Positions 4,639-47,076 of a stretch of DNA of 64,000 nucleotides are shown here, piece after piece. Made by a program: the position numbers and the translations under genes. How positions within the stretch are numbered: position 1 is the stretch's first letter; each line of letters begins with the position of its first letter. The stretch comes from Nitrospirota bacterium (GTDB lineage: Bacteria > Nitrospirota > Thermodesulfovibrionia > Thermodesulfovibrionales > SM23-35). The notes beneath the pieces are model-generated. The model made no database searches, was not told the DNA's origin, and saw only the letters and a list, made by a program, of their open reading frames with translations. The DNA lies in the NCBI GenBank assembly GCA_040753955.1, contig JBFMDQ010000001.1:44668-108667 (forward strand). The letters are read 5' to 3'.

Positions 4639-5522
4639 GAACCCTTTCCCTCGGCTATTCACCATGCCCCAATGATACTTTTATATTCTATGCCCTCGTC
4701 CGCGGGAAAATCGATACAGAGGATATAGGTTTCAAAGAGGCCCTGCTGGATGTTGAGACCCTTAATCAGATGGCTTTGTGCTCCGAACTCGATATTACAA
4801 AGATTTCATATCATGCCTTCGGCCATCTCCGTGAAGACTACTGCCTCCTCCGCTCTGGGAGCGCAATAGGCAGAGGCTGTGGGCCTCTGGTAGTTGCAAA
4901 GGAGGACTACACCGTGAAGGACTTAAGGGAGAAAAGGACAGCAATCCCTGGCAGGCTTACAACGGCAAATCTGCTTTTACAGCTATTTTCTTCAACCTTC
5001 AACCTTCAATCTTCAAATTCCCCCTTACCCCCCTTTACTAAAGGGGGGCAGGGGGGGATTATCGAAATGCCATTTAGTAAGATTATGGATGCAGTTGTGA
5101 AGGGAGATGTGGACGCAGGACTGATAATCCATGAAGGAAGATTTACCTATCCTTCTTACGGCTTGAAGAAAGTTTTAGACCTCGGCGAGTGGTGGGAGAA
5201 TGATACAGGGTTACCTGTACCCCTCGGCGGTGTACTTGCTAAGAGGAATCTGGGAAAAGACCTGATAAAGAGGGCCGATTCAGTTATAGGAAAGAGTATT
5301 GAGTATGCATTTAAACATAGGGATGAGCCAAAGTTCTATATAAAACAGCATTCCCAGGAACTCGAAGAGGAAGTGATAGAGCAGCATATAAATTTATATG
5401 TGAATGATTATTCTTTAGATATTGGTGAGGAAGGGTTATCAGCCGTTAGAGAGCTTCTCAGAAAGGCGGAAATGAGAGGAATTATCAAAGAATCGAGGAA
5501 TGAGTTTTTATGCGTTACGTAA
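4635..5522 (+). CDS. mqnD: 1,4-dihydroxy-6-naphthoate synthase (futalosine pathway)
   Basis: N-terminus RTLSLGYSPCPNDTFIFYAL..LDVETLN..DITKISYHAF is typical of MqnD (VitK2_biosynth family). ATG 4635 follows GGGAG. The gene carries a repeat-derived in-frame insertion at 4991-5060. Confidence 0.8.
   Translation: MRTLSLGYSPCPNDTFIFYALVRGKIDTEDIGFKEALLDVETLNQMALCSELDITKISYHAFGHLREDYCLLRSGSAIGRGCGPLVVAKEDYTVKDLREKRTAIPGRLTTANLLLQLFSSTFNLQSSNSPLPPFTKGGQGGIIEMPFSKIMDAVVKGDVDAGLIIHEGRFTYPSYGLKKVLDLGEWWENDTGLPVPLGGVLAKRNLGKDLIKRADSVIGKSIEYAFKHRDEPKFYIKQHSQELEEEVIEQHINLYVNDYSLDIGEEGLSAVRELLRKAEMRGIIKESRNEFLCVT
4991..5060. repeat. composite repeat inside mqnD: 4 x heptamer TTCAAYC (4991-5018) plus C-run/G-run hairpin element (5017-5060)
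   Basis: ttcaacc ttcaacc ttcaatc ttcaaat, followed by attcccccttacccccctttactaaaggggggcagggggggatt (imperfect palindrome). Read in frame as STFNLQSSNSPLPPFTKGGQGGI. Confidence 0.85.
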
Positions 5523-8854: not shown

Positions 8855-8930
8855 TTGACAGGACTACTGTTAAAGATGGATAATTGAATATGTCTCAGAG
8901 ATATAACTTTAAACTTTTCACTGTTGTTAC

Positions 8931-11056: not shown

Positions 11057-11083
11057 TAACCCCCTCATTCCCCCCCTACTTAG
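11057..11083. repeat. C-arm-only fragment of the C-run/G-run hairpin element
   Basis: taaccccctcattccccccctactta resembles the left arm of the elements at 5017, 27576 and 43894. No G-rich partner arm follows. Confidence 0.5.
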
Positions 11084-14205: not shown

Positions 14206-15957
14206 ATGCATAGGCGATGGCTTGTCAACAGAACCAACCCGGAATATATAGAATATTTGTCAAAAATTGCATCCATTTCCCCTGTTCTGGCTCAAATATT
14301 GATAAACAGGGGAATAAAGACGCCTCACGAGATATATGATTTCCTTAACCCGAGGATATCAAATCTCTCAGACCCCTTCGAGCTTGTAGGCTTAAAGACT
14401 GCTGTTGAAAGAATAAAAGAGGCGTTGAAAAGAAGTGAAAGGGTCCTCGTCCACGGCGACTACGATGCAGATGGTCTCTCTGCTACAGCTATAGTATTTC
14501 TTGCCCTGAAAGGACTCGGATTAGATGTCCATTACTTTATCCCTCACAGGATTACCCATGGATATGGTTTTAGTTTTGCTGGTGTGAAAAGGGCGAAGGA
14601 ACTCGGAGTCGAGCTGGTAATTACAGTTGACTGCGGGATAACATCCTTTGAGGCGATAGCTCTATCGAAAAGAGAAGGAATAGATGTGATTGTAACCGAT
14701 CACCATGAACCAGCTCTTAATCAACAGTCCCTATTCGGAAATCACAATTATCTACTACCCGATGCCTTTGCTATTGTTAATCCTAAACTCTCGACCACTG
14801 ACTCTCGATCCTCGGTCTTATCAGGTGCGGGGGTCGCATTTAAGCTTGCCCAGGCATTATCAACGGTTCACGGTTCACGTCCGCCTATGGCGGACACGGT
14901 TCACGAATTTTTAGACCTCGCTGCTATCGGTACAATGGCTGATGTTGTTCCTATTATCGGTGAGAACAGGATTCTCGTAAAAGAGGGGTTGAAGTTGATA
15001 GAAAATGGTGCGAGGCCAGGCTTGAGGGCACTGAGGGAGGTTTCGGGCATTGATAAGAGAGAGACTAAGTCTGATGTGCTGCCGTTCACAATAATCCCGA
15101 GAATGAATGCAGCTGGCAGGATATCAGACGCTAACAATGTTGTAAAGCTCCTGCTTACTGATTCAGATGATGGGGCAGCCGAGATATCATTTTGGCTGGA
15201 TAAACTCAATTCAGAGAGACAGCAGATAGAGGAAGAGGTTTATCGGGAAGCCCTCGACAAGCTCAATGATAAAGGTGTCCGTTCAGCCATCGTGCTTTCA
15301 GGAGAGGGGTGGCATCAGGGTGTTATTGGCATTGTGGCATCTAAAATTACAGAGATTTTTTACAGACCTACCTTTGTTATTTCCAAAGGGGGAAACACTG
15401 CCACAGGTTCGGCAAGGAGCATCCCTCCCTTTGACATCTATAAAGGTCTAACAGGCTGCAGAGAACTCCTCACAGGCTTTGGCGGTCATAAACAGGCTGC
15501 AGGGTTTAGACTGAATACTGAGGATATTTCATCCTTCGAGGAAAGGATCAACAGGATTGTGGCTGAAAGCCTTACAGAGGAGGATTTTATACCTTCCCTC
15601 GAGATAGATGCAGATGTAAAACTCTCTCACATAAACTTAAGCCTTATAAGAGAGCTCGAGATGCTCGAACCCCTTGGATTTGGAAACACCGAGCCGCTCC
15701 TGGGTTCAAAAGGGCTCGAGGTTCTCTACCCGAGGGTGGTCGGGAATAATCACATCAAGATGAAACTCAGGCAGAGGTCCTACTCCATTGATGCCATAGG
15801 GTTTGATATGGCCGAATTTTTTGATACCCTATTGAATATAGCATCAAATTCAACAGGTTCAACCTTGATCGATGCTGCATTCACGCCATTCATAAATGAA
15901 TGGGAAGGAGGCAGGGGTCTCCAGCTAAACCTGAAGGCATTCAGGCCGAGCCTGTGA
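14206..15957 (+). CDS. recJ: single-stranded-DNA-specific exonuclease RecJ
   Basis: DHH motifs VHGDYDADG, DCG and VTDHHEP, plus a DHHA1 region GGHKQAAG. Confidence 0.9.
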   Translation: MHRRWLVNRTNPEYIEYLSKIASISPVLAQILINRGIKTPHEIYDFLNPRISNLSDPFELVGLKTAVERIKEALKRSERVLVHGDYDADGLSATAIVFLALKGLGLDVHYFIPHRITHGYGFSFAGVKRAKELGVELVITVDCGITSFEAIALSKREGIDVIVTDHHEPALNQQSLFGNHNYLLPDAFAIVNPKLSTTDSRSSVLSGAGVAFKLAQALSTVHGSRPPMADTVHEFLDLAAIGTMADVVPIIGENRILVKEGLKLIENGARPGLRALREVSGIDKRETKSDVLPFTIIPRMNAAGRISDANNVVKLLLTDSDDGAAEISFWLDKLNSERQQIEEEVYREALDKLNDKGVRSAIVLSGEGWHQGVIGIVASKITEIFYRPTFVISKGGNTATGSARSIPPFDIYKGLTGCRELLTGFGGHKQAAGFRLNTEDISSFEERINRIVAESLTEEDFIPSLEIDADVKLSHINLSLIRELEMLEPLGFGNTEPLLGSKGLEVLYPRVVGNNHIKMKLRQRSYSIDAIGFDMAEFFDTLLNIASNSTGSTLIDAAFTPFINEWEGGRGLQLNLKAFRPSL

Positions 15958-15976
15958 AAAGTTAAAAGTGAAAAGT
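15956..15976. repeat. heptamer tandem repeat (KAAAAGT x3)
   Basis: gaaaagt taaaagt gaaaagt, overlapping the recJ stop codon. Confidence 0.6.
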
Positions 15977-16056
15977 TTTTAAAACATTTTACTCTTAACT
16001 TATGAGTCTTGCTAAGAAGTTCATTCATAAGTAAAACAACATCCTTATTCCATTTC

Positions 16057-16175
16057 TGTCATTCCGGGCTTGACCCGGAATCCAGGGTTTTCCGTGAAAA
16101 CGGGAACCTATTTCCTTAATAGTTCCCTGCTTCCGCAGGGACGGCGTCTGGATTCCCGCTTTCGCGGGAATGACA
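16057..16175. repeat. palindromic MITE-like element, GTCATTCC..GGAATCCAG family
   Basis: tgtcattccgggcttgacccggaatccag ... ctggattcccgctttcgcgggaatgaca. The ~28-nt terminal inverted repeats are themselves hairpins, and there are two internal hairpins. A shorter copy lies at 33196-33265. Confidence 0.75.
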
Positions 16176-21472: not shown

Positions 21473-23455
21473 CTATATCCCTAAAGGCGAGGCGAGGCGA
21501 TAAACCACCATTCCACTACCAAATGAGATAAAGAGCATGAACATAAGCGAGATGAGGAACCATCTCCAGCTTCCCATTTCCTGCTTCATCACGACTGCTG
21601 TTGCTGCACATGGAATAAAGAGCATTAGCACGACGAGGAATGAGAGAGCCGATGCATGGCTCATTACTCCTGGCAGGATACTCCTTAGCCCCTCTTCCCC
21701 AACCCCATAGAGCACACCGAGAGTTGCTATCGAGTTCTCCTTAGCAACAAAGCCCGCCAGCAGGGCAATCATCATCTTCCAATCCAATCCTATAGGAGCT
21801 CCCAAAGGTTCAACGAGACGGCCTAACCATCCAAGGATATTATTTTCAATTCTTCCACCAGGAAAGTTAGACATGATCCACAGTAATATCGAGAAGCCAA
21901 GAATAACTGTCCCAGCGCGTTTCACGAAGGCTGCTGTCCTTTTCCATACGGCAATCCCTATCGTCCTAAGATTTGGCCTGTGATATAGAGGGAGCTCCAT
22001 TATGAAAGGCATGGGTTCTCCTTTTAAGAAAAACCTGCTTACTATAATCCCTATAATTCCCAGGGATAAAATATTTATAGCTACAAGTGACCATGAGACA
22101 ATAGTTGCCTTTCCCCCGAAAATAGCAGCCGTAACGAATGCCAGGATAGCAAGCCTTGCAGTGCATGGAACAAAGGGCGTAAGTAATATCGTAAGAAGCC
22201 TTGCCTTCCTTGACTCCACTATTCTTACTCCCAGAACCGCTGGGACGTTGCACCCGAAGCCAAGAAACATCGGGAGAAAGCTCTTCCCATGAAGCCCAAT
22301 TATGTGCATGAATCTATCCATCACAAAGGCTGCCCTCGCCATGTACCCGATATCCTCAAGAAACGCCATGGAGGTGAAGAATATAAGGAGTATAGGTAGG
22401 AATGTAAGGACGGCTCCGGCACCTCCTATAACGCCACCTATTACTATTCCACTGACCCATCCAGGAGCCCCGGAAAGGAAGGGCCCGATCCATCTCGCAA
22501 AAAATTCTACAAGCCATTCCAGCAATCCCTGTATGGGTGATCCCACTTTATAGGTCAAAAAGAAGATAATTGCGAACATCCCTAAAAGTATTGGTATGCC
22601 CAATATTGGACGTATGAGCACATGATCTATCCGATCTGTCAAGAGAACCTGCCCCTTTTTAAACTGCGAAACGGAGGAACGGATAACAGCCTCTATCCAA
22701 TCATATCTGCCGTGAACAACAGCAAGCAAAGAGTCCTCATGACCCCGAAGTTGCAAAACTACCTCCTCCCATTTATCTACTGGGAGAATCTGTTCCAGCA
22801 TCCCTGAAACATCAGGATCGCCCTCCATCAGCTTTGTAACAGCCCAGCAGGTAGTATATGGGTATGAGATGTATTCACCAACCTTTTCCATGAGCGTTAG
22901 GAAAACATCCATATGATCTTGAAAGACCTCGGGAACGGAGGGGTTATATTCCAGATTCCCGTTTGAAAGGGATATTATTTCCTGGACAAGTTCCTTTATC
23001 CCCCTATTTTTTGTGGCGACCATAGGGACGACCGGTATTCCAAGGGACTTCTTAAGAGACTCTACATCTATGAGAATCCCTTGCTCCTGAGCCACGTCCA
23101 TCATGTTCAAAGCAACTATGACCGGAGGCTTTAGAAGGAGAAGTTCGGAGAGTAGATAAAGGCTTCTTTCTAAAGCTGATGCATTGGCTATAAGAATTAC
23201 AACATCGGGTCGCTCTTTTATTATAAAATCCCTCGCTATCCTCTCCTCTTCGGAGAAGGCCGTGAGGCTGTATGTTCCAGGAAGGTCAATTATTCCCATC
23301 TCAGCTTCCCCTGAGATGATAACCCCTTCCTTTTTTTCAACCGTCTTTCCAGGCCAGTTCCCAACGTGTTGCGATAATCCCGTGAGAATATTAAAGACTG
23401 TGGATTTGCCAACGTTCGGTTGCCCTGCAAGGGCTACAAGAAGTTTCTTTCCCAC
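21473..23455 (-). CDS. feoB: ferrous iron transporter FeoB
   Basis: 660 aa with an N-terminal G domain GQPNVGKST..DLPGTYSL..NMMD and a polytopic C-terminal permease. Confidence 0.95.
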   Translation of the reverse strand: MGKKLLVALAGQPNVGKSTVFNILTGLSQHVGNWPGKTVEKKEGVIISGEAEMGIIDLPGTYSLTAFSEEERIARDFIIKERPDVVILIANASALERSLYLLSELLLLKPPVIVALNMMDVAQEQGILIDVESLKKSLGIPVVPMVATKNRGIKELVQEIISLSNGNLEYNPSVPEVFQDHMDVFLTLMEKVGEYISYPYTTCWAVTKLMEGDPDVSGMLEQILPVDKWEEVVLQLRGHEDSLLAVVHGRYDWIEAVIRSSVSQFKKGQVLLTDRIDHVLIRPILGIPILLGMFAIIFFLTYKVGSPIQGLLEWLVEFFARWIGPFLSGAPGWVSGIVIGGVIGGAGAVLTFLPILLIFFTSMAFLEDIGYMARAAFVMDRFMHIIGLHGKSFLPMFLGFGCNVPAVLGVRIVESRKARLLTILLTPFVPCTARLAILAFVTAAIFGGKATIVSWSLVAINILSLGIIGIIVSRFFLKGEPMPFIMELPLYHRPNLRTIGIAVWKRTAAFVKRAGTVILGFSILLWIMSNFPGGRIENNILGWLGRLVEPLGAPIGLDWKMMIALLAGFVAKENSIATLGVLYGVGEEGLRSILPGVMSHASALSFLVVLMLFIPCAATAVVMKQEMGSWRWFLISLMFMLFISFGSGMVVYRLASPLGI

Positions 23456-23715
23456 TATTGTCCGATCCCGCCCTTTTCGTCCCCAACCCTGGTTATCATT
23501 ATCCTTGATGCCTGACCCCTTCCAATAGCGATTCTTGTACCATTAGTTATGACCAGCAGAGGTCCCCTGTTGTTTCTAAGGACCTTGAGCCATATCCCTG
23601 GAGCAATACCCATTGCAGCAAGTCTACTTATTAGCCCGTATCCTCCTGAAATGGAATGTACAATCCCTTCCTCTCCTTCCATGAGAGAGGTAAGGGGTAG
23701 CAGATCAACTTTCAT
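23455..23715 (-). CDS. feoA: ferrous iron transport protein FeoA
   Basis: 86-aa SH3-like FeoA (LTSLMEGEEGIV..RLAAMGIAPG). Its stop overlaps the feoB start, and GGAGAAG lies upstream. Confidence 0.85.
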   Translation of the reverse strand: MKVDLLPLTSLMEGEEGIVHSISGGYGLISRLAAMGIAPGIWLKVLRNNRGPLLVITNGTRIAIGRGQASRIMITRVGDEKGGIGQ

Positions 23716-24038
23716 GGATTCTTCTCCTTTACCTTCATTTCTTTTGACATTTCTTACAGTATCCCCTTATCTCGAGTGTGTGGCTTACTCCTCAAAAGTG
23801 GTTCCTCCTGAATTCTTTCAAGGTCTTCAGAATAAAACTCTAGTATTTCTTCGCATGCGATGCAGAACATATAATAAAGAGATTCAGGGTCAAAATGGAA
23901 TACTAAATTTTGTTTTTATGTGTCAAGAGGGCAATTGCACCAAGAAGTACCTCTTTTTCCGTGACATAAAGTCTGGTCTGAGAATGCACTTGACAAAAAT
24001 TCCTTATGAGGCAAAGATAGTTTATTGGAGGTTTATTT

Positions 24039-26319: not shown

Positions 26320-28688
26320 ACTCCTCGGGATCGAGTCGCAACGATCTTGTCATTGTTGAGTCACCTGCAAAGGCAAAGACCCTCCATAAGATACTCGGTA
26401 AGGGATTTGCAGTCAAGGCATCTATTGGTCATATAAAGGACCTTCCTGAGAAAGAGCTTGGGGTTGATGTGGAGAGTAACTTTAAGCCTCATTACGTTGT
26501 AATCCCTGGTAAAGAAAAAGTTATTAAGGAGCTTAAGAAGGCATCAAAAGAGGCTGATAAGATATTTCTTGCCCCCGACCCTGATAGGGAGGGAGAAGCA
26601 ATAGCATGGCATATTGCTTATGAAATCTCAAATATCATCCCGAAACAAGTTCGGGATCAAAATTTAAAAGGAAAGATACACAGGATTACCTTTAATGAAA
26701 TAACAGAGCGGGCTGTGCGAGAAGCAATAAAGAACCCTGGCAGGATAGATATGAACAAGGTCGAGGCCCAGCAGGCCCGGAGGATACTTGACAGGCTTGT
26801 CGGTTACGGACTCAGCCCCCTTCTATGGAAGAAGGTTAGGAAAGGCCTTAGCGCAGGGAGGGTACAGTCCGTTGCAGTAAAGCTGATTGTAGACAGAGAG
26901 CGAGAGATAAGGGCATTCAAACCCGAAGAATACTGGAGTATAAACGCAGAATTTGAAGGGTCTAAACCTCCCAGGTTCTGGGCAAGACTTTACAAGATAG
27001 ACTCCAGACTCCAGACTATAGGCTCCAGATTTTTGATACCCAATGAAAATACTGCAACGGCTATTGTTAATGACTTAAAAGACAGAGAGTTTGTACTGAG
27101 CAAAATAGAGCGCAAGCAGAGGAAGAGGATGCCTTATCCTCCCTTTATCACAAGCACTATACAGCAGGAAGCAGCAAGGAGACTGAGATTCCCGGCAAAA
27201 AAGACAATGATGATAGCACAGCAGCTCTACGAGGGAGTGGAACTTGCTGAAGAGGGTTCAGTGGGACTCATTACCTATATGAGAACAGACTCCTTCAGGG
27301 TTGCCCCTGATGCACAGGAGTGGGCGAGGGAATTCATCATGAGGGTTTATGGAAGAGATTACACACCTGAGAAACCTCCTGTTTATAAAACCAAAGGATC
27401 TGTACAGGATGCACATGAGGCGATAAGGCCGACATATCCTGAGAAAAGACCAGAGGATATAAAACAATTTCTTTCAAAAGACCAATATGCCCTTTATACG
27501 TTGATATGGAATCGGTTTATATCAAGCCAGATGGCACCAGCCCAGCTTGAACAAACGACCTTTACAATCAATACAAATCCCCCCTTACCCTCAAATAATC
27601 CCCCCACCCCCCCTTTAGTAAAGGGGGGCGAGGGGGGATTTGCCGAGTTCAGGGCATCAGGAACGGTAGTCCGTTTCGATGGCTTCATGGCCTTGTATAC
27701 AGAAGGAAGGGATGAGGCAGAAGAGGAAGAAGGACTGGCATTGCCTGCATTAAAAGAGGGGGAGACATTAACACTTCTAAATCTACAACCAAGACAGCAT
27801 TTCACACAGTCGTCACCACGTTATACGGAGGCGACACTCATTAAGGCCCTTGAGGAAAAAGGTATTGGTAGACCGAGCACCTATGCAACAATCCTCTCCA
27901 CCATCCAGGAGAGGAAATATGTCCATAAGACTGACGGCAAGTTTTCCCCCACAGAGCTTGGCATTGTTGTAAATGACTTTCTCGTTGAAAGATTCCCCGA
28001 ACTCATAGATGTGGATTTTACTGCAAAAATGGAAGATGAGCTTGACCGGATTGAAGACGGAAAGATAAGATGGGTAAAGGTTGTAAAGGATCTTTACAAC
28101 CCTTTCAGCCGTGACCTCACAGAGGCTATAAAAACTACAGGCAGGGTAAGACCAGAGGATATACCTACTGAAACCATATGCGAGGTGTGCGGCCTTCCCA
28201 TGGTCATAAGGTGGGGAAGACACGGAAGATTTCTGGCATGCTCTGGATTTCCAAAATGTAAAAATACAAAACCCATGGAAAGTCAGCAGTCAGCCGTCAG
28301 CAGTCAGCAGTCAAATGAGATATGTGATAAGTGTGGCTCACCTATGTTAATAAAGTCGGGGCGATATGGAAAATTCCTTGCCTGTTCAAGATATCCTGAG
28401 TGCAAAAATACAAGACCTCTGTCAACGGGTTTGAGATGTCCACAGGATGGAGGAGATATAGTAGAAAGGCATTCAAGAAAAGGGAAACCTTTCTGGAACT
28501 GTGGTAACTATCCAGCGTGCCAATTCGTTTTATGGAATAAACCTATACCCGGAAAATGTCTTCAGTGTGGTGCAGATTTCCTTCTTGAGAAAAGAGGTAA
28601 GGCAGGAAAGTTGATACATTTCTGCCATAATAAGAAATGCGGATACAAAGGGGAAGTAAAAGAGGAAGTGGTCGGCCATTTATTATAG
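26316..28688 (+). CDS. topA: DNA topoisomerase I
   Basis: Toprim LVIVESPAKAKT..DPDREGE, active-site Tyr region GLITYMRTDS, and four C-terminal Cys4 zinc ribbons. Carries two repeat-derived in-frame inserts (27576-27640, 28281-28315). Confidence 0.95.
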   Translation: MNSSGSSRNDLVIVESPAKAKTLHKILGKGFAVKASIGHIKDLPEKELGVDVESNFKPHYVVIPGKEKVIKELKKASKEADKIFLAPDPDREGEAIAWHIAYEISNIIPKQVRDQNLKGKIHRITFNEITERAVREAIKNPGRIDMNKVEAQQARRILDRLVGYGLSPLLWKKVRKGLSAGRVQSVAVKLIVDREREIRAFKPEEYWSINAEFEGSKPPRFWARLYKIDSRLQTIGSRFLIPNENTATAIVNDLKDREFVLSKIERKQRKRMPYPPFITSTIQQEAARRLRFPAKKTMMIAQQLYEGVELAEEGSVGLITYMRTDSFRVAPDAQEWAREFIMRVYGRDYTPEKPPVYKTKGSVQDAHEAIRPTYPEKRPEDIKQFLSKDQYALYTLIWNRFISSQMAPAQLEQTTFTINTNPPLPSNNPPTPPLVKGGEGGFAEFRASGTVVRFDGFMALYTEGRDEAEEEEGLALPALKEGETLTLLNLQPRQHFTQSSPRYTEATLIKALEEKGIGRPSTYATILSTIQERKYVHKTDGKFSPTELGIVVNDFLVERFPELIDVDFTAKMEDELDRIEDGKIRWVKVVKDLYNPFSRDLTEAIKTTGRVRPEDIPTETICEVCGLPMVIRWGRHGRFLACSGFPKCKNTKPMESQQSAVSSQQSNEICDKCGSPMLIKSGRYGKFLACSRYPECKNTRPLSTGLRCPQDGGDIVERHSRKGKPFWNCGNYPACQFVLWNKPIPGKCLQCGADFLLEKRGKAGKLIHFCHNKKCGYKGEVKEEVVGHLL
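27576..27640. repeat. C-run/G-run hairpin element inside topA (extra left arm)
   Basis: aaatccccccttaccc tcaaat aatcccccccaccccccctttagtaaaggggggcgaggggggatt. Read in frame as NPPLPSNNPPTPPLVKGGEGGF. Confidence 0.85.
28281..28315. repeat. heptamer tandem repeat inside topA (AGTCAGC x5)
   Basis: agtcagc agtcagc cgtcagc agtcagc agtcaaa. Read in frame as SQQSAVSSQQSN, between two zinc-ribbon modules. Confidence 0.85.
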
Positions 28689-31689: not shown

Positions 31690-31735
31690 AATACCCCACC
31701 AAACCTCCCCGTAAGGGGAGGACAAGGAGGGGTTA
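31690..31735. repeat. structural variant of the C-run/G-run hairpin element
   Basis: aataccccaccaaacctcccc-gtaa-ggggaggacaaggaggggtta. It has the same outer-run/inner-run/loop architecture as the other copies but different primary sequence. It lies between the ppiD-like stop and tRNA-Leu. Confidence 0.6.
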
Positions 31736-31752
31736 GAATATCCTTTCGTCTA

Positions 31753-33118: not shown

Positions 33119-33195
33119 GCATTTGTATTATATTGTAAGTAGCAAAACGTTAGGGGGGTTACAAGCACCTGAGAATGCTGTAACTCATCAGTCTC

Positions 33196-33265
33196 TGTCA
33201 TTCCTGTGCAGGCAGGAATCCAGTCCCCTTACCATTTTCTGGATTCCCGCTTTCGCGGGAATGAC
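33196..33265. repeat. short copy of the GTCATTCC..GGAATCCAG palindromic element
   Basis: tgtcattcctgtgcaggcaggaatccag-16 nt-ctggattcccgctttcgcgggaatgac. The right arm is identical to that of the 16057-16175 copy. Confidence 0.75.
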
Positions 33266-33406
33266 GAAAGAACCCCCATAGAATCTATTAAAATTACCAG
33301 ACCAAGACGAACATTCAGCTCCATCGATTCTAACCTCCTGAATTAAAGAGATATTCTTGAGAAAGACTCTTTTTTGCCCCCCTAAAGATTTGCTACTTCC
33401 TATTAT

Positions 33407-34619: not shown

Positions 34620-34639
34620 GGGCGGTTCGCGAACCGCCC
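34620..34639. repeat. perfect 20-nt palindrome GGGCGGTTCGCGAACCGCCC
   Basis: gggcggttcg|cgaaccgccc. It lies just upstream of the ATG at 34647. Confidence 0.7.
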
Positions 34640-35641: not shown

Positions 35642-36915
35642 AGGTCTTTGTAGCAGGACTCAATCATAAGACTGCTGATATTGATGTCAGGGAGAAAGTG
35701 GCATTCAATGGCTCCAGACTCGAAGATGGCCTGATAAGGTTCAAAGAACTCCCTGAGATTGAAGAGGTTTTGATACTATCTACCTGTAACAGGGTGGAAC
35801 TATATGCAAATGTGAGGGATACTTTAAAGGCATCTGAATCTATAAAGATTCTTCTATCAGAATTCCACAATATAAACAGGGAGTTGCTGGATAAAGCCGT
35901 CTATATCTATGATGATGTTAATGCAGTGAGACACATCTTCAGAGTTGCATCGAGCCTCGACTCCATGGTCATTGGTGAACCTCAAATCCTCGGGCAGTTG
36001 AAAAAGGCATTTGAGTTAGCCCTCGAGAAAAAGACTATGGGTATCCTTCTGAACAGACTGATGAAGAAGGCAATCTCTGTTGCCAAAAGGGTGAGGAGAG
36101 AAACAAGAATAGCTGAACACGCAGTCTCTGTGAGTTTTGCAGCTGCTGAACTCGCAAAGAAGATCTTTACTGATCTCTCAGGGAAGGTATTCATGCTTTT
36201 AGGTGCAGGCGAGATGGCTGAACTTGCAGCAAGGCATCTAATGAGCAGTGGCGTGAAGGAAGTTATTGTAGCAAACAGGAGATACGAGCGTGCCTGTGAG
36301 ATCGCAAAGGAATTCAACGGGAGACCTGTTAAGTTTGATGATTTTCTGCAGGAGATGGTACCCTCCGATATAGTCATCTGCTCAACAGGAGCCCAGAACT
36401 ATGTTTTGACAAAAAGCCAAGTACAGAAAGTGATGAAGGAGAGGAAGCAGAAGCCGGTCTTTATAATTGATATCTCCGTTCCGAGAAACGTTGACCCAGA
36501 AGTAAACGATTTGGACAATGTCTATCTTTACAATATTGATGACCTGCAGGGTATTGTTGATAAAAATAAATTTGAAAGGCAGAAAGAGGCGGAGAAGGCA
36601 GAAAAGATAGTTGAAGAAGAAATCGAGCCCTTTCTTAAGTGGCAATCCTCTCTCGACTCTGTACCAACCATTGTAGCCTTGAGGGAGAAGGCAGAGGAGA
36701 TTAAAAAGGAGGAGCTCGAGAAGCTTTTAAATAGGTTCCCTGATATGGAGGAAAAACAGAGAAAGGCTTCTGAATATATGGCTACTGCAATCGTCAATAA
36801 ACTCATCCATCAACCTACTGTGGCTCTGAAAGAGTACTCTGAAGATAGAGATCTTATGATAGCAGTGATAAAAAGGCTTTTTGCTATTGATGAAGAAAGG
36901 GATGAAGATAAATAA
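35638..36915 (+). CDS. hemA: glutamyl-tRNA reductase
   Basis: GLNHKTA..REK, catalytic-Cys motif STCNRVE, and NADPH site GAGEMA. ATGA overlap with the upstream gene. Confidence 0.95.
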   Translation: MKVFVAGLNHKTADIDVREKVAFNGSRLEDGLIRFKELPEIEEVLILSTCNRVELYANVRDTLKASESIKILLSEFHNINRELLDKAVYIYDDVNAVRHIFRVASSLDSMVIGEPQILGQLKKAFELALEKKTMGILLNRLMKKAISVAKRVRRETRIAEHAVSVSFAAAELAKKIFTDLSGKVFMLLGAGEMAELAARHLMSSGVKEVIVANRRYERACEIAKEFNGRPVKFDDFLQEMVPSDIVICSTGAQNYVLTKSQVQKVMKERKQKPVFIIDISVPRNVDPEVNDLDNVYLYNIDDLQGIVDKNKFERQKEAEKAEKIVEEEIEPFLKWQSSLDSVPTIVALREKAEEIKKEELEKLLNRFPDMEEKQRKASEYMATAIVNKLIHQPTVALKEYSEDRDLMIAVIKRLFAIDEERDEDK

Positions 36916-37891
36916 AATATCCATTGGTACACGGGGCAGCAAGCTCGCACTCCTTCAGGCAGAATGGGTAAAATCAGAGCTTCATAAGATACACCCGGAA
37001 ATCGAAATAAGGCTCATTAAAATAAAGACAACAGGAGACAAGATCCTTGATGTGCCACTGGCAAAGGTTGGGGGAAAGGGGCTTTTTGTTAAGGAGATAG
37101 AGGAAGCCCTTTTCAGGGGGGAAGTTGATATGGCAGCACACAGCATAAAGGATGTGCCAACGGTTCTCCCGGAAGGACTTCATATTGCCGCTATATGTAA
37201 AAGGGAAGACCCGAGGGATGCCTTAATATCGAAAATTCTAAATTCTAAATTCCAAATTCCAAATTTTAGGAGTCTACCTTCTGGTGCAACCATAGGAACA
37301 AGCAGTCTCAGGCGTTCATGTCAGTTGAGCCACATTAGACCAGATTTAAAAATTGTGCAGCTCAGGGGAAATCTCGATACGAGACTCAGGAAACTCGATG
37401 AAGGCCATTTTGATGCAATCATCGTAGCTGTTGCAGGTATAAAGAGGTCAGGATGGGCTGAAAGGATAACAGAAATCCTTGAACCCGAGATATGCCTTCC
37501 TGCAACAGGTCAGGGTGCTATAGGGATAGAGTGCAGGATTGATGATGAGGTCATGAATAATATAGTTGGAGCATTAGACCATAAAGAAACATCGATATGC
37601 GTGAGGGCCGAGAGGGCCTTTCTTAAGAGACTCGCAGGAGGATGTCAAGTGCCTATCGCTGCCTATGCACGGATAGTCAGACAGGAGTCAGGAGTCAAGA
37701 GTCAAGAGTCAAATGTAAATAATAACTTCTCACTTCTTATGGATGGTCTTGTAGGGAGTGTCACTGGTGATAAGATCGTAAGAGGCCGTATGGAAGGAAG
37801 GCCCGAAGAACCCGATGCCCTCGGCATCAAACTTGCTGGGGACTTGCTTGCACGAGGAGCGAAGGAGATACTTGCCGAGGTGTACGGGTGA
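36902..37891 (+). CDS. hemC: porphobilinogen deaminase (hydroxymethylbilane synthase)
   Basis: IGTRGSKLALLQA, GTSSLRR, and the cofactor-Cys region GGCQVPIAAY. The start is uncertain (36881, 36890 or 36902). Contains two heptamer-repeat inserts. Confidence 0.9.
   Translation: MKINKISIGTRGSKLALLQAEWVKSELHKIHPEIEIRLIKIKTTGDKILDVPLAKVGGKGLFVKEIEEALFRGEVDMAAHSIKDVPTVLPEGLHIAAICKREDPRDALISKILNSKFQIPNFRSLPSGATIGTSSLRRSCQLSHIRPDLKIVQLRGNLDTRLRKLDEGHFDAIIVAVAGIKRSGWAERITEILEPEICLPATGQGAIGIECRIDDEVMNNIVGALDHKETSICVRAERAFLKRLAGGCQVPIAAYARIVRQESGVKSQESNVNNNFSLLMDGLVGSVTGDKIVRGRMEGRPEEPDALGIKLAGDLLARGAKEILAEVYG
37233..37267. repeat. heptamer tandem repeat inside hemC (AAATTCY x5)
   Basis: aaattct aaattct aaattcc aaattcc aaatttt. 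Read in frame as (K)ILNSKFQIPNF. Confidence 0.85.
37674..37712. repeat. heptamer tandem repeat inside hemC (GAGTCAR x4 plus a degenerate unit)
   Basis: tagtcag acag gagtcag gagtcaa gagtcaa gagtcaa. Read in frame as VRQESGVKSQES. Confidence 0.85.
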
Positions 37892-42292: not shown

Positions 42293-42309
42293 AAAGGAGG
42301 TGAGAATAA

Positions 42310-43872
42310 ATGGGTAAGAAAATTACTATAGATCCAATTACCAGGATTGAAGGACACCTGAAGATTGAAGTAGAAATTGAAGATGGTAAGGTTAAGGATG
42401 CCTGGAGTAGTGGTACAATGGCTCGTGGATTTGAGGCCATGCTCATTGGGAAAGATCCAAGGGATGCCTCCTTTGTAACCAGTCGCTTCTGCGGGGTCTG
42501 CTATAGTGTGCACCAGATAACTTCCGCACGTGCTCTGGATGAAGCCTTTGGGGCTAAGGTTCCATGGGGAGGAACCCTCATCAGGAACCTGGTCATGGGT
42601 GCAGAGTATATCTATGACCATCTGATTCATTTTTACCAGTTGAGCGCCCTTGATTATATTGATATCATGGCCATCGCCAAATACAAAGGTAAGGATAAGG
42701 ATCTGTTGGCTGTTAAGGATAAGATTGTGGGCTTAGTAAAGGCAAAAGACACCTATCCGCTCACCCCAAGATATGAACCAGATGAATTTACTGTCAAAGA
42801 CTCAGATATAGTAATCACTGCAGTTAAGCATTATATTGATGCCCTGAAGATACATGCCCAGGCCAGGAACATGGGGGCTATATGGGGCGGCCGGACTCCT
42901 CATTATCAGAATATCGTAGTCGGAGGTGTCACCTCCTATCCCGATATAAATCAGGTAGCCCGTTTTCGCACTATGCTCGATGAGCAGGCCAGGTTTATCA
43001 ATGAGGTGTACATCCCGGACGTGTTGCTCTTCGGAACCGGTCCGCTATGGCCACTGGCCGAGCTTGGTGTAGGTGGAGGCCATTACAATTATCTCTCTTA
43101 TGGTGCCTTTGAGAAGGATCCGGCAGGTAAAGAGTTAGTCTTTCCTGCAGGCGTTATCGTGGGCCTGGATCCTGCGGATATCAAAGTTGAGCCATTTGAT
43201 CCCAAGAAGGTCACTGAATCGGTGAAATATGCCTGGTATAAGGAAAAGAAGCCAGTTCACCCTTATGATGGCGAGCAGGTATTTAATCTTGAAAAGAAGG
43301 AGGCATATTCCTTTGTCAAGGCCCCTCGCTACGACGGCAAATCAATGGAGGTTGGCCCACTTGCACGGATGCTTGTAGCCAAAAATCCTACTCTTATCGA
43401 TTTGGTCAAAAAGGGTGCAAAACCCGGTGCAGTTGCCCGCCATGCTGCCCGTGCAATTGAGACCAAGCTTGTAGTGGATGCCTGCTATAACTGGTTAGAC
43501 CAGCTACTCACCGAGATGACCAAACCGGGATTTAAGGTTCACGACACCGCACATTGGGATCCACCCGAAAGTGGCATGGGTGCTGGATTTTATGAAGCAC
43601 CTCGAGGTGCCTTAGGACACTGGGTCAAGATCAAAAACAAAAAGACCGAGAATTATCAGTGCGTGGTCCCTTCGACCTGGAATGCCTCGCCTCGCGACGA
43701 AAAAGGCGTCCGTGGGCAATACGAGGAAGCCCTCATTGGTGCTCCGGTACCAGATCCTGAAAACCCGATCAATGTAGTACGGATAATCCGCTCCTTTGAT
43801 CCCTGTCTGGCTTGCGCTATCCACATTATCGATCCGAAAACGAATGAAATCAGAAAATTCATTATCGAATAG
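42310..43872 (+). CDS. [NiFe] hydrogenase large subunit
   Basis: N-terminal RIEGHLKIEV, RFCGVC and C-terminal DPCLACAIH Ni-Fe ligand motifs. Both C-terminal ligands are Cys codons (tgt, tgc), so this is not a Sec-containing enzyme. Confidence 0.95.
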   Translation: MGKKITIDPITRIEGHLKIEVEIEDGKVKDAWSSGTMARGFEAMLIGKDPRDASFVTSRFCGVCYSVHQITSARALDEAFGAKVPWGGTLIRNLVMGAEYIYDHLIHFYQLSALDYIDIMAIAKYKGKDKDLLAVKDKIVGLVKAKDTYPLTPRYEPDEFTVKDSDIVITAVKHYIDALKIHAQARNMGAIWGGRTPHYQNIVVGGVTSYPDINQVARFRTMLDEQARFINEVYIPDVLLFGTGPLWPLAELGVGGGHYNYLSYGAFEKDPAGKELVFPAGVIVGLDPADIKVEPFDPKKVTESVKYAWYKEKKPVHPYDGEQVFNLEKKEAYSFVKAPRYDGKSMEVGPLARMLVAKNPTLIDLVKKGAKPGAVARHAARAIETKLVVDACYNWLDQLLTEMTKPGFKVHDTAHWDPPESGMGAGFYEAPRGALGHWVKIKNKKTENYQCVVPSTWNASPRDEKGVRGQYEEALIGAPVPDPENPINVVRIIRSFDPCLACAIHIIDPKTNEIRKFIIE

Positions 43873-44428
43873 CGACTCAAGAAAAATAAAGAAAATCCCC
43901 CCTTACCCCCCTTTAGCAAAGGGGGGGAGGGAGGATTATATATCTCAAAAAGAAGGGAAACTTCTTTCACTCCAAAAATTTGTCATCCTCGGAGTAGGTA
44001 ATCTTTTACTATCTGACGAAGGGGTTGGCGTTCACATAGCTAATGAACTTATGAAGATGGAACTGCCACCAGAGGTTTCGGTTGTTGAAGGTGGGACAAA
44101 TGGATTTCATCTCATCAATGTGATAACAGAAGCTGACAGACTCATCGTGATTGATGCTGTCAAAGGAGGTGGTGCTCCCGGTTCTATCTATCGTTTCGAC
44201 ATTAATGATGTCCGAAACTGCCCATCCGGTTTTAAGACATCAGTTCACCAGATCGGTATTTTAGAGGTCATAGATTTGTCAGGGCTGATCGGAAAGACCC
44301 CTCAAACCACAGTTATCGGTGTCGAACCTAAGTCTCTGGAGTTGGGAATGGAATTATCCCCCGAAATTAAGGCAAAGATTCCGAGGATTATTGAATTGAT
44401 ATTTGAAGAACTAAAAAAGTCAGGATAG
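43844..44428 (+). CDS. hydrogenase maturation endopeptidase (HyaD/HybD family)
   Basis: The conserved core starts near 43976 (KFVILGVGNLLLSDEGVGVHIANEL..VIDAV). No ATG/GTG/TTG lies between the repeat and the core. The nearest in-frame ATG is 43844, inside the large-subunit gene, and the ORF track starts at 43796. Confidence 0.8.
   Translation: MKSENSLSNSDSRKIKKIPPYPPLAKGGREDYISQKEGKLLSLQKFVILGVGNLLLSDEGVGVHIANELMKMELPPEVSVVEGGTNGFHLINVITEADRLIVIDAVKGGGAPGSIYRFDINDVRNCPSGFKTSVHQIGILEVIDLSGLIGKTPQTTVIGVEPKSLELGMELSPEIKAKIPRIIELIFEELKKSG
43894..43937. repeat. C-run/G-run hairpin element between the hydrogenase large subunit and protease genes
   Basis: aaatccccccttacccccctttagcaaagggggggagggaggatt. 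The frame of the downstream protease gene stays open through it (IPPYPPLAKGGRED). Confidence 0.85.
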
Positions 44429-44446
44429 GCTCTTGGCATTTGAGTC

Positions 44447-44496
44447 TGGTTATTGGTGCCTGGTTATTGGAATTTATTGGAATTTGGTTATTGGGG
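44447..44496. repeat. GGTTATTGG / AATTTGGAAT short-repeat cluster
   Basis: tggttattggtgcctggttattggaatttattggaatttggttattgggg, located upstream of hypC. Confidence 0.65.
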
Positions 44497-44509
44497 TTTA
44501 TAATATAAT

Positions 44510-44746: not shown

Positions 44747-44793
44747 ATAATCCTACAATATTACCCATCTGTTAAAATCTTAATAAGGCATTT

Positions 44794-47076
44794 ATGTCAA
44801 TATCTGACTTCATAGAATCCTTAAAAAAAGACAGGAGATTTAATCTCCAGGTTGCAGAACATAAATACATTCCTCCCATGAGGCCAGGATATGGGGAGCT
44901 TACTTTATTTGACAGGCTCAGAGATGTATTGAGAAGGCGAGGCATAGAGCTATTTTACAGCCACCAGGTCGAGGCTATTAATTTAATAAGGCAGGGAGAG
45001 AATGTCGTTGTTATGACCCCTACGGCAAGCGGTAAGAGCCTCATATATAACATTCCTGTGCTTGAATCCATCATCGAAAACCCTGAGTATAGGGCATTGT
45101 ATATATTCCCGTTAAAGGGACTTGAACAGGACCAGGTAAAAAACCTTAATGAGCTTTTTTATTCCGTGATGACACCCTCCCCTACTCCTCCCATTATTTA
45201 TAAACCCCCTCCCCGCTCAAAATCCCCCCTGCAATTTGCAGAAATCTACGATGGGGACACAACAGCCTACAGGAGAAAGAAGATAAGAGAGGAAATACCT
45301 AACGTTATTTTTACAAACCCTGATATGCTCCATCTTGCATTAAATCCCTTTCATAAAAAATGGGAAACCTTCTTCAAGAATTTGAGATATGTGGTTATTG
45401 ATGAGATACATACTTACAGGGGTGTATTTGGCTCAAATGTTGCCCATGTGATGAGGAGGCTGAGGAGAATATGTAAATACTGGGGTTCTAACCCCCAATT
45501 TATTGCAGCCTCTGCAACTATAGCCAATCCATCTCAACTTGCTGAAGAACTCATTGGATTACCTTTTAAGGTTGTGGCTCAAAGTGGGGCACCACAGGCA
45601 GGGAGACATTTTATATTTATTAATCCCATTGACAGCCCTTATACAGAAACGACAAGGCTTTTTATAAGATGCCTGAATGCAGGGCTCAGAACAATCGTCT
45701 TTACAAAGGCAAGAAAGATAACAGAGCTTATCTATTCATGGACAATGAACCAGGCACCTGAGCTTGAGGGCAGGATAAGCCCTTACCGCGCTGGTTTTCT
45801 TCCGAGAGAAAGGAGAGAGATAGAACAGAGATTATTCAGTGGAGAGCTCTTAGGTGTTGTATCAACAAGCGCACTTGAGCTCGGAATTGATATAGGAGGG
45901 CTTGACTGCTGTATACTCTGCGGTTATCCAGGCTCTGTGGCAAGCACCTGGCAAAGGGCAGGTCGTGTTGGAAGAGGTGGACAGGAATCAATGATTGTGA
46001 TGATTGCTATTCAGGATGCCCTTGACCAGTATTTCATGCGTCATCCTGAGGCATTCTTTGAAAAAAGTCATGAGGCAGCAGTCATAGACCCTGAAAATAG
46101 AAATATCCTTAAAAGACATATTCCATGTGCCTCTTCAGAGGTTTACCTGAGAGAATACGACGAGACATATGATGTAAAAAAGCTTATGCCTTTGATTGAT
46201 GAGCTTGTTAAAGAAGGGATTTTAAATCCTGGCAGGAAAGGAGACATATGGTTCTCCAGAAGAAGAATGCCCCACAGGGAGGTTGGTATCAGGGCGATCG
46301 GTGAGCCATTTGATATTATTGATGAATCAGGGAAGGCAATTGGGGAGCTAAGTGGTATAAGGGTTTTCAGGGATGCCTTTCCTGGGGCTATCTATCTCCA
46401 CAGGGGAAGGCAGTATCATGTTACAGAGCTTGATTTAGAAAGGAAAAGGGTGATATGCAGTGAGGTTGACGTAAATTATTACACCCAGGCATTGAGCAAA
46501 GAAGAGACAGAAGTAATAAAAGAGAAGGAGATGAAGAATTACAGGGGCCTTTCAGTTCGCTGGGGAACCCTTAAAACAACCCAGAAGATAACAGGCTATG
46601 AGAAAAAGAGGATCTTTGACAGGGTCAGGATTTCAAGACATGGCCTCGATATGCCTGATTGCATATTCGAGACAGAAGGACTCTGGATCAAAATAGATAA
46701 GACAATAAAATCTTTTGTCGAATCAAAAGGTTTTGATCTTGCAGGGACCCTCCATGCTGTTGAGCATACTGTAATAGCATGTATACCACTATTTGCCCTC
46801 TGTGACAGAGGAGACATTGGCGGATTGAGTTATACCTTTTATCCTGAATTTAAACAACCTGCAATATTCATTTATGATGGATACGAAGGTGGGATAGGGC
46901 TAACAAAGAGGGCGACTGAGGTTATCGGGGATTTGCTGATGGCAACCCTGAAGGTCATTGATGAATGTCCTTGCGAAGAAGGTTGCCCTTCCTGTGTGCA
47001 GGACCCACAGTGTGGTTCAGGCAACCAGCCACTGGATAAAGAAGGGGCAAAAAATCTACTTAAAAGATGGCTCTAA
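44794..47076 (+). CDS. DEAD/DEAH-box helicase with C-terminal DUF1998/MrfA Zn-binding domain (YprA/MrfA-like)
   Basis: Motif I TPTASGKS, motif II VIDEIH, motif VI QRAGRVGRG, and a C-terminal CPCEEGCPSCVQDPQCGSGN cysteine cluster. Contains a C-rich insert at 45171-45232. Confidence 0.85.
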   Translation: MSISDFIESLKKDRRFNLQVAEHKYIPPMRPGYGELTLFDRLRDVLRRRGIELFYSHQVEAINLIRQGENVVVMTPTASGKSLIYNIPVLESIIENPEYRALYIFPLKGLEQDQVKNLNELFYSVMTPSPTPPIIYKPPPRSKSPLQFAEIYDGDTTAYRRKKIREEIPNVIFTNPDMLHLALNPFHKKWETFFKNLRYVVIDEIHTYRGVFGSNVAHVMRRLRRICKYWGSNPQFIAASATIANPSQLAEELIGLPFKVVAQSGAPQAGRHFIFINPIDSPYTETTRLFIRCLNAGLRTIVFTKARKITELIYSWTMNQAPELEGRISPYRAGFLPRERREIEQRLFSGELLGVVSTSALELGIDIGGLDCCILCGYPGSVASTWQRAGRVGRGGQESMIVMIAIQDALDQYFMRHPEAFFEKSHEAAVIDPENRNILKRHIPCASSEVYLREYDETYDVKKLMPLIDELVKEGILNPGRKGDIWFSRRRMPHREVGIRAIGEPFDIIDESGKAIGELSGIRVFRDAFPGAIYLHRGRQYHVTELDLERKRVICSEVDVNYYTQALSKEETEVIKEKEMKNYRGLSVRWGTLKTTQKITGYEKKRIFDRVRISRHGLDMPDCIFETEGLWIKIDKTIKSFVESKGFDLAGTLHAVEHTVIACIPLFALCDRGDIGGLSYTFYPEFKQPAIFIYDGYEGGIGLTKRATEVIGDLLMATLKVIDECPCEEGCPSCVQDPQCGSGNQPLDKEGAKNLLKRWL
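45171..45232. repeat. C-rich (C-arm-like) repeat segment inside the helicase gene
   Basis: gacaccctcccctactcctcccattatttataaaccccctccccgctcaaaatcccccctgc. Read as TPSPTPPIIYKPPPRSKSPLQ, between helicase motifs Ia and Ib. No G-rich partner arm. Confidence 0.55.

Follow-up and report, generated by a model that had tools for sequence, protein, structure and literature searches.

The 64,000-nt stretch analysed here (hereafter the window; contig JBFMDQ010000001.1 of the Nitrospirota assembly GCA_040753955.1, positions 44,668 to 108,667) carries three full copies of a two-tier palindrome with the consensus AATC6-nnn-C6TTTAnnAAAG6-nnn-G6ATT. An initial annotation, made from the letters of the window, had described them as selfish hairpin repeats inserted in frame into housekeeping genes and accompanied by tandem heptamer arrays. 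We studied these copies and their host genes, the corresponding loci of related bacteria and the wider family to which the palindrome belongs, some members of which bracket a small gene of the DUF559 family.

Hairpin copies in the window and their host genes

The palindrome is built of three modules: an outer arm A (AATCCCCCC), an inner hairpin H (CCCCCC-TTTAnnAAA-GGGGGG) and a right arm A' (GGGGGGATT). The basic unit is 32 nt long and consists of A, 2–4 variable bases and H (C6-TTT-nnn-AAA-G6), and the window copies are self-complementary A-H-A' singlets of 44–45 nt. The copies and their host genes are as follows; E values of the copies come from a covariance model built from 26 element copies out of many genomes.

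4635–5522, plus strand: mqnD (1,4-dihydroxy-6-naphthoate synthase), host gene; Pfam PF02621, E = 2e-76
5014–5062, no strand assigned: hairpin copy 1 (A-H-A', 45 nt), in frame in mqnD, reads SPLPPFTKGGQGGI; 68.9 bits, E = 3e-21
26316–28688, plus strand: topA (DNA topoisomerase I), host gene; Pfam Toprim, Topoisom_bac and three Zn ribbons
27576–27594, plus strand: extra left outer arm AATCCCCCCTTACCCTCAAAT beside copy 2, read directly from the sequence
27594–27642, no strand assigned: hairpin copy 2 (A-H-A'), in frame in topA, reads NPPTPPLVKGGEGGF; E = 4e-20
43844–44428, plus strand: hydrogenase maturation protease (HycI family) with a putative start at 43844; Pfam PF01750 over aa 79–204 of the long open reading frame (ORF)
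43892–43940, no strand assigned: hairpin copy 3 with a degenerate right outer arm, lying between the genes for the NiFe hydrogenase large subunit and the HycI-type protease, in frame with the protease provided that this starts at ATG 43844; E = 6e-18

The full copies proposed in mqnD, topA and the protease leader were borne out by direct inspection, pattern counts, folding and the covariance model. The core pattern gave 12 matches in the window (three sites, both strands, two registers) versus 0.09 expected, and the model found exactly these three sites, on both strands, at about E = 1e-18 to 1e-21. Each one folds into a two-tier hairpin (z-scores from −3.3 to −4.1 relative to shuffled sequences), and in an alignment all three match units of other loci column for column. 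The duplicated left arm of the topA copy is present as well. The element ends in (A)AAT...ATT(T), lacks a GTAG/CGTC-type tetranucleotide at its 5′ foot, and is not followed by a T-run at any of the three window copies. A search of the whole window against Rfam at gathering thresholds returned two tRNAs only, and no family fits the hairpin.

In the host frames the element spells PLPPFTKGGQGGI in MqnD, PPTPPLVKGGEGGF in TopA and IPPYPPLAKGGRED in the protease leader. As had been noted, two forward frames are in use and the host reading frame is open through all three copies; the antisense ORFs reported at 27494–27805 and 43656–43970 also exist. We ascribe the open host frames to the composition of the palindrome, because the identical peptide arises on both strands and in intergenic copies: two of the three frames per strand (four of six) are stop-free and give PP[FL]xKGG. 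In the protease gene the first in-frame ATG, at 43844, lies upstream of the element, and no canonical start occurs from the element to the conserved ILGVGN motif. Since this ATG is the sole canonical in-frame start before the motif, copy 3 is, judging from the reading frame, probably translated.

Comparison with orthologues shows that the segments are insertions. In MqnD the predicted junction peptides of the insert include SNSPLPPFTK / GGQGGIIEMPFSK, and the solved structures of the Thermus thermophilus (2czl) and Archaeoglobus fulgidus (1zbm) proteins align with an 18-residue gap exactly at the element. About 19 residues at the element, between TTLTV and GAGDF, have no counterpart in E. coli TopA (4rul) or in 6ozw; from the alignment and the TopA fold as we know it, we take this site to be the tip of a beta-hairpin in domain II. 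Many Thermodesulfovibrionales orthologues also have the short form at the insert site, namely a 282-aa MqnD or a TopA reading ESSGRPYEF, and the element is missing from the MqnD orthologues P0005, P0010, P0037, P0104 and P0112. Because solved-structure orthologues and many close relatives do without them, the inserts are real insertions in variable loops and not ancestral residues. These alignments served for mapping the loops in place of an AlphaFold2 model of MqnD (18-sequence alignment), which was unfit for the purpose, with a mean predicted local distance difference test score of 45.

The same observations bear on the idea that the inserts are removed from the mRNA or protein in the manner of introns or inteins, or form a functional peptide module selected in the hosts. 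In its favour, the host frame is always open and PP[FL]xKGGxGG recurs, but the open frame is already explained by palindrome composition. Motifs of inteins or introns are lacking, a length of 45 nt lies far below what either would need, the Rfam search was negative, and the insert bears no relation to the function of hosts whose orthologues do without it. We therefore consider this explanation hardly conceivable.

Both loops are insertion hot spots. In 18 MqnD orthologues the short form, the element, two nested hairpins or quite different inserts all occur at one point, and in 120 TopA orthologues the hairpin tip ranges from the short form up to multi-copy strings such as NPPTPPLEKGGEGGFEKGEGGAIS; altogether the two loops show dozens of distinct insert states, nested and multiple copies among them. 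The closest comparison is with GCA_030019415.1, a relative about 96% identical at the nucleotide level, of which about 55 kb was read (loci L121 and L126). Most length differences between the window and this relative are small hairpins and heptamer arrays. Inside the loop of its mqnD palindrome the relative carries a 102-bp miniature inverted-repeat transposable element (MITE; L121 10405–10506; ends CCCCGTTAGAAAG...CTTTTCTAACGGGG), with TTTA duplicated and 34 codons added in frame, which suggests that other small elements use hairpin loops as insertion targets. Its topA element is replaced by a differently nested two-tier hairpin (L126). Because an independent Logan assembly (L127) shows the same version as the relative, these differences reflect ongoing turnover and not an assembly artefact.

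The repeat family across phyla and its DUF559 cassette

The family extends far beyond the window and is not private to this genome. Species-representative genomes scanned with CCCCCCTTTANNAAAGGGGGG yielded at least 120 loci in at least 12 phyla, a few isolates included, and 946 kb of element-bearing loci were analysed. Hosts belong to Nitrospirota, Nitrospinota, many Thermodesulfobacteriota, Beta- and Gammaproteobacteria, Planctomycetota, Acidobacteriota, Ignavibacteria/Bacteroidota, Aminicenantes, Dehalococcoidia, the candidate phyla radiation and others. Among the matches listed there are 214 element instances in the 946 kb of other genomes, and the AATC6 arm, which lay outside the search pattern, is nevertheless present in 104 of 142 oriented units.

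Placement differs sharply between groups. Among the matches listed, 22 of 38 Nitrospirota copies (58%) lie inside long ORFs versus 14 of 170 elsewhere (8%; Fisher p = 9e-11), and Nitrospinota have 4 of 6. Intergenic placement thus dominates outside these two phyla (156/170 non-genic). Further hosts include a Nitrospiraceae methionyl-tRNA synthetase (MetRS; L107 2614–4639) with two in-frame units, SNPPSPPFTKGGQGGI and SPSPLFTKGGLGGF, and a Nitrospinota leucyl-tRNA synthetase (LeuRS; L036 6657–7995) with one, EIPPHPPLEKGGWGDL.

The common form outside Nitrospirota is the 32-nt half unit (A-H or H-A'), often arranged as inverted doublets with units 15–30 nt apart. About 30 such doublets (H-A'/15–30 nt/A-H or A-H/.../H-A') were found in other genomes, each coupling a C5/G5-type unit with a C6/G6-type unit; the window has singlets and no doublet. 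In gene-less doublets from different genomes (L023, L026, L079, L091, L111) the spacers have a common motif, approximately AAGCGGTTATA or its complement. In IMG/VR, at least 120 stretches of viral or proviral contigs contain the hairpin core as well, and one such contig (L332) carries a DUF559 gene preceded by two tandem H-A' units. Such contigs are a possible vehicle for spread between phyla.

All-against-all BLAST clustering of the ORFs at the at least 120 loci revealed no recurrent neighbour that could serve as a mobilising gene: the top family occurred in 5 loci, and the families found were all housekeeping (P-type ATPase, GTPases, ATP-binding cassette ATPase, aminoacyl-tRNA synthetases). 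Two ORFs at these loci have units on both sides, one in a Burkholderiales metagenome-assembled genome (MAG) and the other in a Nitrospirota MAG, and both are DUF559 genes (PF04480, E = 7e-36). The same bracketing is present at the DNA level in Nitrosomonas ureae and a Desulfobaccales MAG, making four lineages in all. The geometry is fixed: H-A' ends 10–65 nt before the start codon and A-H starts at the stop codon, with about 0.5 kb in total. The gene has about 115 codons, encodes a Vsr-like PD-(D/E)xK fold and sits where the doublet spacer would be. The units are thus the terminal inverted repeats of a DUF559 cassette of about 0.5 kb. In N. ureae the cassette (L128 2940–3400) lies between hsdM and hsdS of a type I restriction-modification operon; the HsdM frame runs through the upstream unit and hsdS overlaps the cassette end.

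Traces of the units are also found in the DUF559 proteins. Among 120 homologues, 75 end in (I/N)PPxPP[FL]xKGG, a count biased upward by a query that itself contained tails, and 20 start with PPFEKGGxGGF; tail-bearing homologues include four N. ureae proteins and proteins of Methylobacter, Methylomonas and Luteimonas. A tail-free core alignment (A3) was then used to retrieve 80 metagenome loci. At these, H-A' was found at −52 to −82 nt in 35/77, A-H at +20 to +72 nt in 24/75 and either in 39/72. Among the 40 genes closest to the core, 30 are flanked by a canonical unit on one side or both, versus 14 of the remaining 40 (p = 6e-4), and most of the apparent negatives share the two-tier layout with different stems, as in CCCCTCCTTTAGGAGGGG-TTA-GGGGAGATTT. 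Catalytic-type residues are invariant in the DUF559 alignment, and the nearest solved structure is an uncharacterised endonuclease-like protein of Neisseria gonorrhoeae (3HRL).

A similar arrangement exists in E. coli K-12 (region NC_000913.3 1351000–1351800), where downstream of the DUF559 gene ycjD there is first a partial duplicate of the gene's 3′ end and then a two-tier GC hairpin, CCCCTCGCC-CCTCTGGGGAGAGG-GTTAGGGTGAGGGG. The hairpin lies on one side of ycjD only; across 5,426 E. coli genomes its copies are dispersed, with a median of 16 per genome. We presume it to be the old 'box C' repeat, a name that reportedly goes back to Bergler 1992 and Bachellier 1999. Literature searches on DUF559, on Vsr with repetitive extragenic palindromes (REPs) and on ycjD/boxC returned nothing tying DUF559 to repeats, and searches with the element's own sequence strings returned HIV polypurine-tract papers only.

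These findings allow two other accounts of the repeats to be weighed. The first holds that they are classical REPs or REPINs (REP doublets forming hairpins), moved by a REP-associated tyrosine transposase (RAYT; Y1 HUH) or an IS200/IS605-type enzyme encoded elsewhere, and that the DUF559 link is incidental. Size, imperfect palindrome, inverted doublets and mostly extragenic placement outside Nitrospirota all match REPINs (PMC3116915). The ends, however, are AAT/ATT with no GTAG/CGTC-type 5′ tetranucleotide, the ORF clustering gave only housekeeping families (no direct Y1/RAYT profile search was made), and the gene that is bracketed, with fixed geometry, is DUF559. Moreover, RAYT systems are lineage-restricted and vertically inherited according to one preprint (bioRxiv 10.1101/2022.05.22.493013), in contrast to the cross-phylum sequence described here. 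This account seems to us quite improbable.

The second account regards the hairpins as host-functional structures under selection, such as terminators, mRNA stabilisers or protein binding sites, which double as ribosome-binding site or terminator of DUF559 and fall into genes by accident. Their stability, invariant stems with variable loops and spacers, mainly intergenic placement outside Nitrospirota and a G-rich arm 10–30 nt ahead of DUF559 start codons are all in keeping with it. It fares worse with the lack of a T-run and of an Rfam match, with the 58% of listed Nitrospirota copies that lie inside ORFs, with nested and tandem copies, and with the presence/absence and rebuilding of copies between 96%-identical genomes. 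We regard it as improbable.

Heptamer arrays and other repeats in the window

The heptamer arrays described in mqnD, topA and hemC are real: the window holds seven arrays versus 0.1 in dinucleotide shuffles, and none at periods 8–10. They and the hemC gene are listed below.

4990–5016, plus strand: CTTCAAC ×3.9, abutting hairpin copy 1 in mqnD; encodes SSTFNLQSSN; conserved in L121, L123 and L125
14127–14154, plus strand: CGTAATG ×4, intergenic
15954–15977, plus strand: AAAAGTT ×3, at a gene end
26999–27029, plus strand: AGACTCC ×4.4 in topA, in a region variable versus 6ozw
28281–28313, plus strand: AGTCAGC ×4.7 in the topA Zn-ribbon linker (ESQQSAVSSQQS); the relative has three more units (+21 nt, frame kept)
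36881–37891, plus strand: hemC (porphobilinogen deaminase), host gene, whose two inserts versus E. coli 1ah5 coincide with heptamer arrays
37233–37265, plus strand: AAATTCC ×4.7 in hemC, a 6-aa insert versus E. coli
37679–37712, plus strand: GAGTCAA ×4–5 in hemC, a 15-aa insert versus E. coli; the relative has another unit, AAACTCA

Period 7 dominates over the 946 kb of element-bearing loci, with a modal length of about 4.3 units. The 151 arrays comprise 111 distinct units and have no common consensus, only an about two-fold enrichment of TCA/TGA; 48% of arrays are genic in Nitrospirota versus 12% elsewhere. The noted adjacency of arrays to hairpins does not exceed chance: 3 arrays lie within 25 nt of a hairpin versus 3.6 expected. 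Within 100 nt there are 15 versus 7.9 ± 2.5, an excess that we read as a shared preference of arrays and hairpins for variable regions. The idea that the arrays are piled-up 7-bp target-site duplications from repeated insertion and excision was rejected because there is no close linkage to hairpins. We treat the arrays as a second, co-resident and fast-changing source of loop insertions, separate from the hairpins and of unexplained origin. In some loci adjacent arrays have roughly reverse-complementary units that would form long hairpins (L110 5187–5247; L069 6218–6281; L002 1750–1823).

Several other small repeats and hairpins occur in the window:

11057–11083, plus strand: partial unit AACCCCCTCATTCCCCCCC (A-arm and C-run, without the G arm), at a synteny breakpoint with L121; covariance model E > 10
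16061–16171: intergenic cluster of three small hairpins, ATTCCGGGCTTGACCCGGAAT, TCCCTGCTTCCGCAGGGA and ATTCCCGCTTTCGCGGGAAT, the last identical to 33243–33262
26637–26657, no strand assigned: small unrelated hairpin ATCCCGAAACAAGTTCGGGAT, 21 nt, in topA; the relative has a heptamer array (AATCTCA) there instead, net +15 nt
31690–31736, no strand assigned: intergenic sibling two-tier hairpin, ACCCCACC-AAA-CCTCCCCGTAAGGGGAGG-ACAA-GGAGGGGT, identified by folding and a weak model match (E = 0.004)
33132–33403: MITE-like element, about 270 nt long and bounded by terminal inverted repeats of 27 nt (AAGTAGCAAAACGTTAGGGGGG ... CCCCCCTAAAGATTTGCTACTT); missing from the relative
34620–34639, no strand assigned: perfect 20-nt palindrome GGGCGGTTCGCGAACCGCCC; missing from the relative
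45171–45232, plus strand: C-rich 18-aa insert in a MrfA/YprA-like helicase, relative to B. subtilis MrfA; no match to the covariance model

Three of these places had been put down as fragments of the hairpin family, and none could be kept as such. The model gave no acceptable match at 11057–11083; the sequence at 33376–33387 is actually the end of the MITE-like element; and the helicase insert is not recognisably the element, although it is possibly a decayed copy. The two proposed variants of similar architecture fared differently. The hairpin at 31690–31736 retains its weak model match, has no counterpart in the relative, i.e., is an indel polymorphism, and resembles in its stem type the hairpins flanking other DUF559 subfamilies. 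The sequence at 47166–47241, in turn, is a pair of other hairpins with no significant match (E = 0.5–1.8).

The MITE-like element carries ATTCCCGCTTTCGCGGGAAT at 33243–33262, an ATTCCC-N8-GGGAAT palindrome that is presumably of the Neisseria dRS3 kind. The cluster at 16061–16171 is a second hairpin repeat family in the genome. A further repeat of about 140–170 nt, with internal inverted repeats, is present in two copies that are 90–98% identical (53759–53916 and 62661–62794), and a related copy occurs in another Thermodesulfovibrionales contig (L122 7195–7351). Larger differences from the relative were also observed: a radical-SAM gene in L121 (14374–15315) is missing from the window at 8906, and the window segments 21946–23041 (about 1.1 kb inside feoB) and 23657–23893 (236 nt) are missing from L126.

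Proposed mechanism and comparison with known systems

On balance, we lean towards reading the palindromes as widespread, REP-like small selfish repeats, whose spread is likely driven by a DUF559 nuclease, a role apparently undescribed so far. The gene-less doublets and singlets would then relate to the DUF559 cassette as REPs and REPINs do to RAYTs, or MITEs to insertion sequences (IS). A DUF559 nuclease, presumably encoded elsewhere in the genome, would recognise the hairpin as a duplex or extruded cruciform and nick or cut there, and repair would copy units into new sites. Genic copies would persist in flexible loops, provided that they add a whole number of codons and leave the frame open; the open frames would give a Pro/Gly-rich PP[FL]xKGGxGG peptide suited to a flexible surface loop of an essential protein. 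Given stop-free frames, a length in multiples of three and such a peptide, copies in permissive surface loops could survive, presumably translated and harmless. Nitrospirota would be unusually tolerant of them, and the same loops would then gather further insertions, namely nested hairpins and slippage-prone heptamer arrays.

Several observations weigh against this reading, besides the upward bias of the tail count. In the less biased, core-only test the signal is weaker, with units on both sides at 15/72 metagenome loci. Of the two DUF559 genes first recognised between units, one carries a frameshift and the other has no canonical start. Searches by tblastn with the DUF559 consensus found none in the 64-kb window or in about 55 kb of the relative, and for this reason the tie of DUF559 to this genome is by family membership only. 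The A-H-A' singlet, the form present in the window, was never seen flanking a gene in the loci examined. Comparison with the relative yielded neither a target-site duplication nor a clean filled/empty pair for the hairpin, whose AAT/ATT ends belong to the palindrome itself, and the hairpin differences resemble replacements more than simple insertions. Stems are invariant within a genome and loop and spacer bases are hypervariable, which fits selection on structure or unusual copying better than recent bursts from a master copy. Finally, to our knowledge, neither nuclease activity nor transposition has been demonstrated for any DUF559 protein.

The main rival reading makes the DUF559 cassettes secondary invaders: a homing-type nuclease gene would enter the spacers of pre-existing doublets, and the hairpins themselves would spread by some other enzyme or by template switching during replication. 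The gene does sit exactly at the spacer position of gene-less doublets, and the conserved spacer motif across genomes favours this sequence of events somewhat; because of that common motif, the doublets are not simply fresh deletion products of the DUF559 gene. The clade of VSR, DUF559 and DUF2726 includes a homing endonuclease (PMC3424549), partial duplicated gene ends adjoin the cassette at L093 as they do ycjD, and some IS elements likewise target REPs. On the other side, lineage-specific stems go with DUF559 subfamilies, as co-evolution predicts (a homing enzyme would also track its target), and no other candidate gene recurs near the units. The present data do not separate secondary invasion from DUF559-driven spread, and we rate it as rather unlikely.

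More tentatively, and with less confidence than in DUF559-driven spread of this one family, the proposal may be widened. DUF559 proteins, including E. coli YcjD, would be the cognate nucleases of a pan-bacterial class of two-tier GC hairpins with a stem for each subfamily, the box-C-like repeat among them; this would be a second, independent partnership of the REP-RAYT type, in which Nitrospirota and Nitrospinota break the 'extragenic only' rule and remodel loops of essential proteins.

If confirmed, the DUF559 partnership would be a substantial discovery. It would supply a function and a directly testable substrate for DUF559, which ranks among the commonest uncharacterised domains of bacteria and is present also in E. 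coli K-12, and would explain the GC-rich hairpin repeats behind countless spurious 'PPxxKGG'-type hypothetical proteins in MAG annotation. It would also mean that REP-RAYT-type partnerships arose more than once, with unrelated enzymes. Nitrospirota would then be a natural experiment, with surface loops of TopA, MqnD, HemC, MetRS and LeuRS continually reshaped by selfish inserts of 45 nt, nested inserts and heptamer arrays. Such reshaping bears on how proteins acquire loops and on ortholog-based phylogenomics of Nitrospirota lineages. The units are, in addition, a practical annotation marker, by which spurious ORFs can be masked and insert-bearing genes flagged.

Rickettsia palindromic elements (RPEs) are about 100–150 bp long and are not known outside Rickettsia. 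The initial annotation called the window copies RPE-like selfish DNA, and their behaviour agrees with this: they are in-frame palindromic repeats tolerated in loops of housekeeping proteins, and no transposase is nearby (none among the 25 families listed of 79 in a Pfam search of 51 further window ORFs). RPEs are mentioned in PMC1458961 and PMC10969869. The element described here differs in its 44–45 nt, pan-phylum distribution, candidate partner gene and Thermodesulfovibrionales host, by which it is set apart from RPE-1 to RPE-8 without direct alignment. The statement that no mobilising gene is visible likewise holds for the window, but a candidate exists in other genomes in the DUF559 genes bracketed by units. 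The family occurs in at least 12 phyla and, Nitrospirota and Nitrospinota apart, lies mostly between genes, which makes REPs and REPINs a closer analogue than RPEs.

Other systems share some of the features. As in MITEs, terminal inverted repeats (H-A' and A-H, reverse complements) surround a gene or short spacer, and insertions are nested; in contrast to MITEs, neither a DDE transposase nor any other recognised type is present, the short form measures just 44–80 nt, and the gene-bearing form encodes DUF559 and not a known transposase family. The E. coli box-C-type repeat is likewise a dispersed two-tier GC hairpin beside a DUF559 gene, with another stem sequence and on one side of ycjD. The Vsr repair nuclease and the Vsr-family I-Bth0305I belong to the same fold clade as DUF559 and set a precedent for a selfish site-specific nuclease (PMC3424549); I-Bth0305I, however, sits in a phage group I intron, and there is no intron here. 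For the heptamer arrays, cyanobacterial short tandemly repeated repetitive (STRR) sequences and the 'four tandem heptanucleotide' elements that Geobacter metallireducens has both inside its genes and between them (PMC2700814) also consist of about four to five tandem 7-nt units. Unlike in STRRs, nearly each array here has its own unit and not one dispersed consensus, and the host is a member of Nitrospirota.

The closest parallel is with REPs, bacterial interspersed mosaic elements (BIMEs) and REPINs, together with their RAYT transposases (Bertels & Rainey 2011; PMC3116915). Common to both are imperfect palindromes about 30 nt long that occur mostly outside genes, scattered in copy numbers from tens to hundreds (here 3 in 64 kb); inverted doublets with a short spacer; a small nuclease-type gene bracketed by inverted units; and enzyme subfamilies with lineage-specific repeat sequences. 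The Y and Z units of BIMEs alternate in doublets, and so do the C5 and C6 unit types here. There are also differences. The bracketed gene is DUF559, of the Vsr-like PD-(D/E)xK fold, and not a HUH Y1 transposase; the GTAG/CGTC tag is missing; and the unit has two tiers, the inner hairpin and its outer arm. In contrast to the extragenic placement of REPs, each of the three window copies falls in an ORF or an ORF leader. A near-identical unit is found across at least 12 phyla, and most of its Nitrospirota copies are genic.

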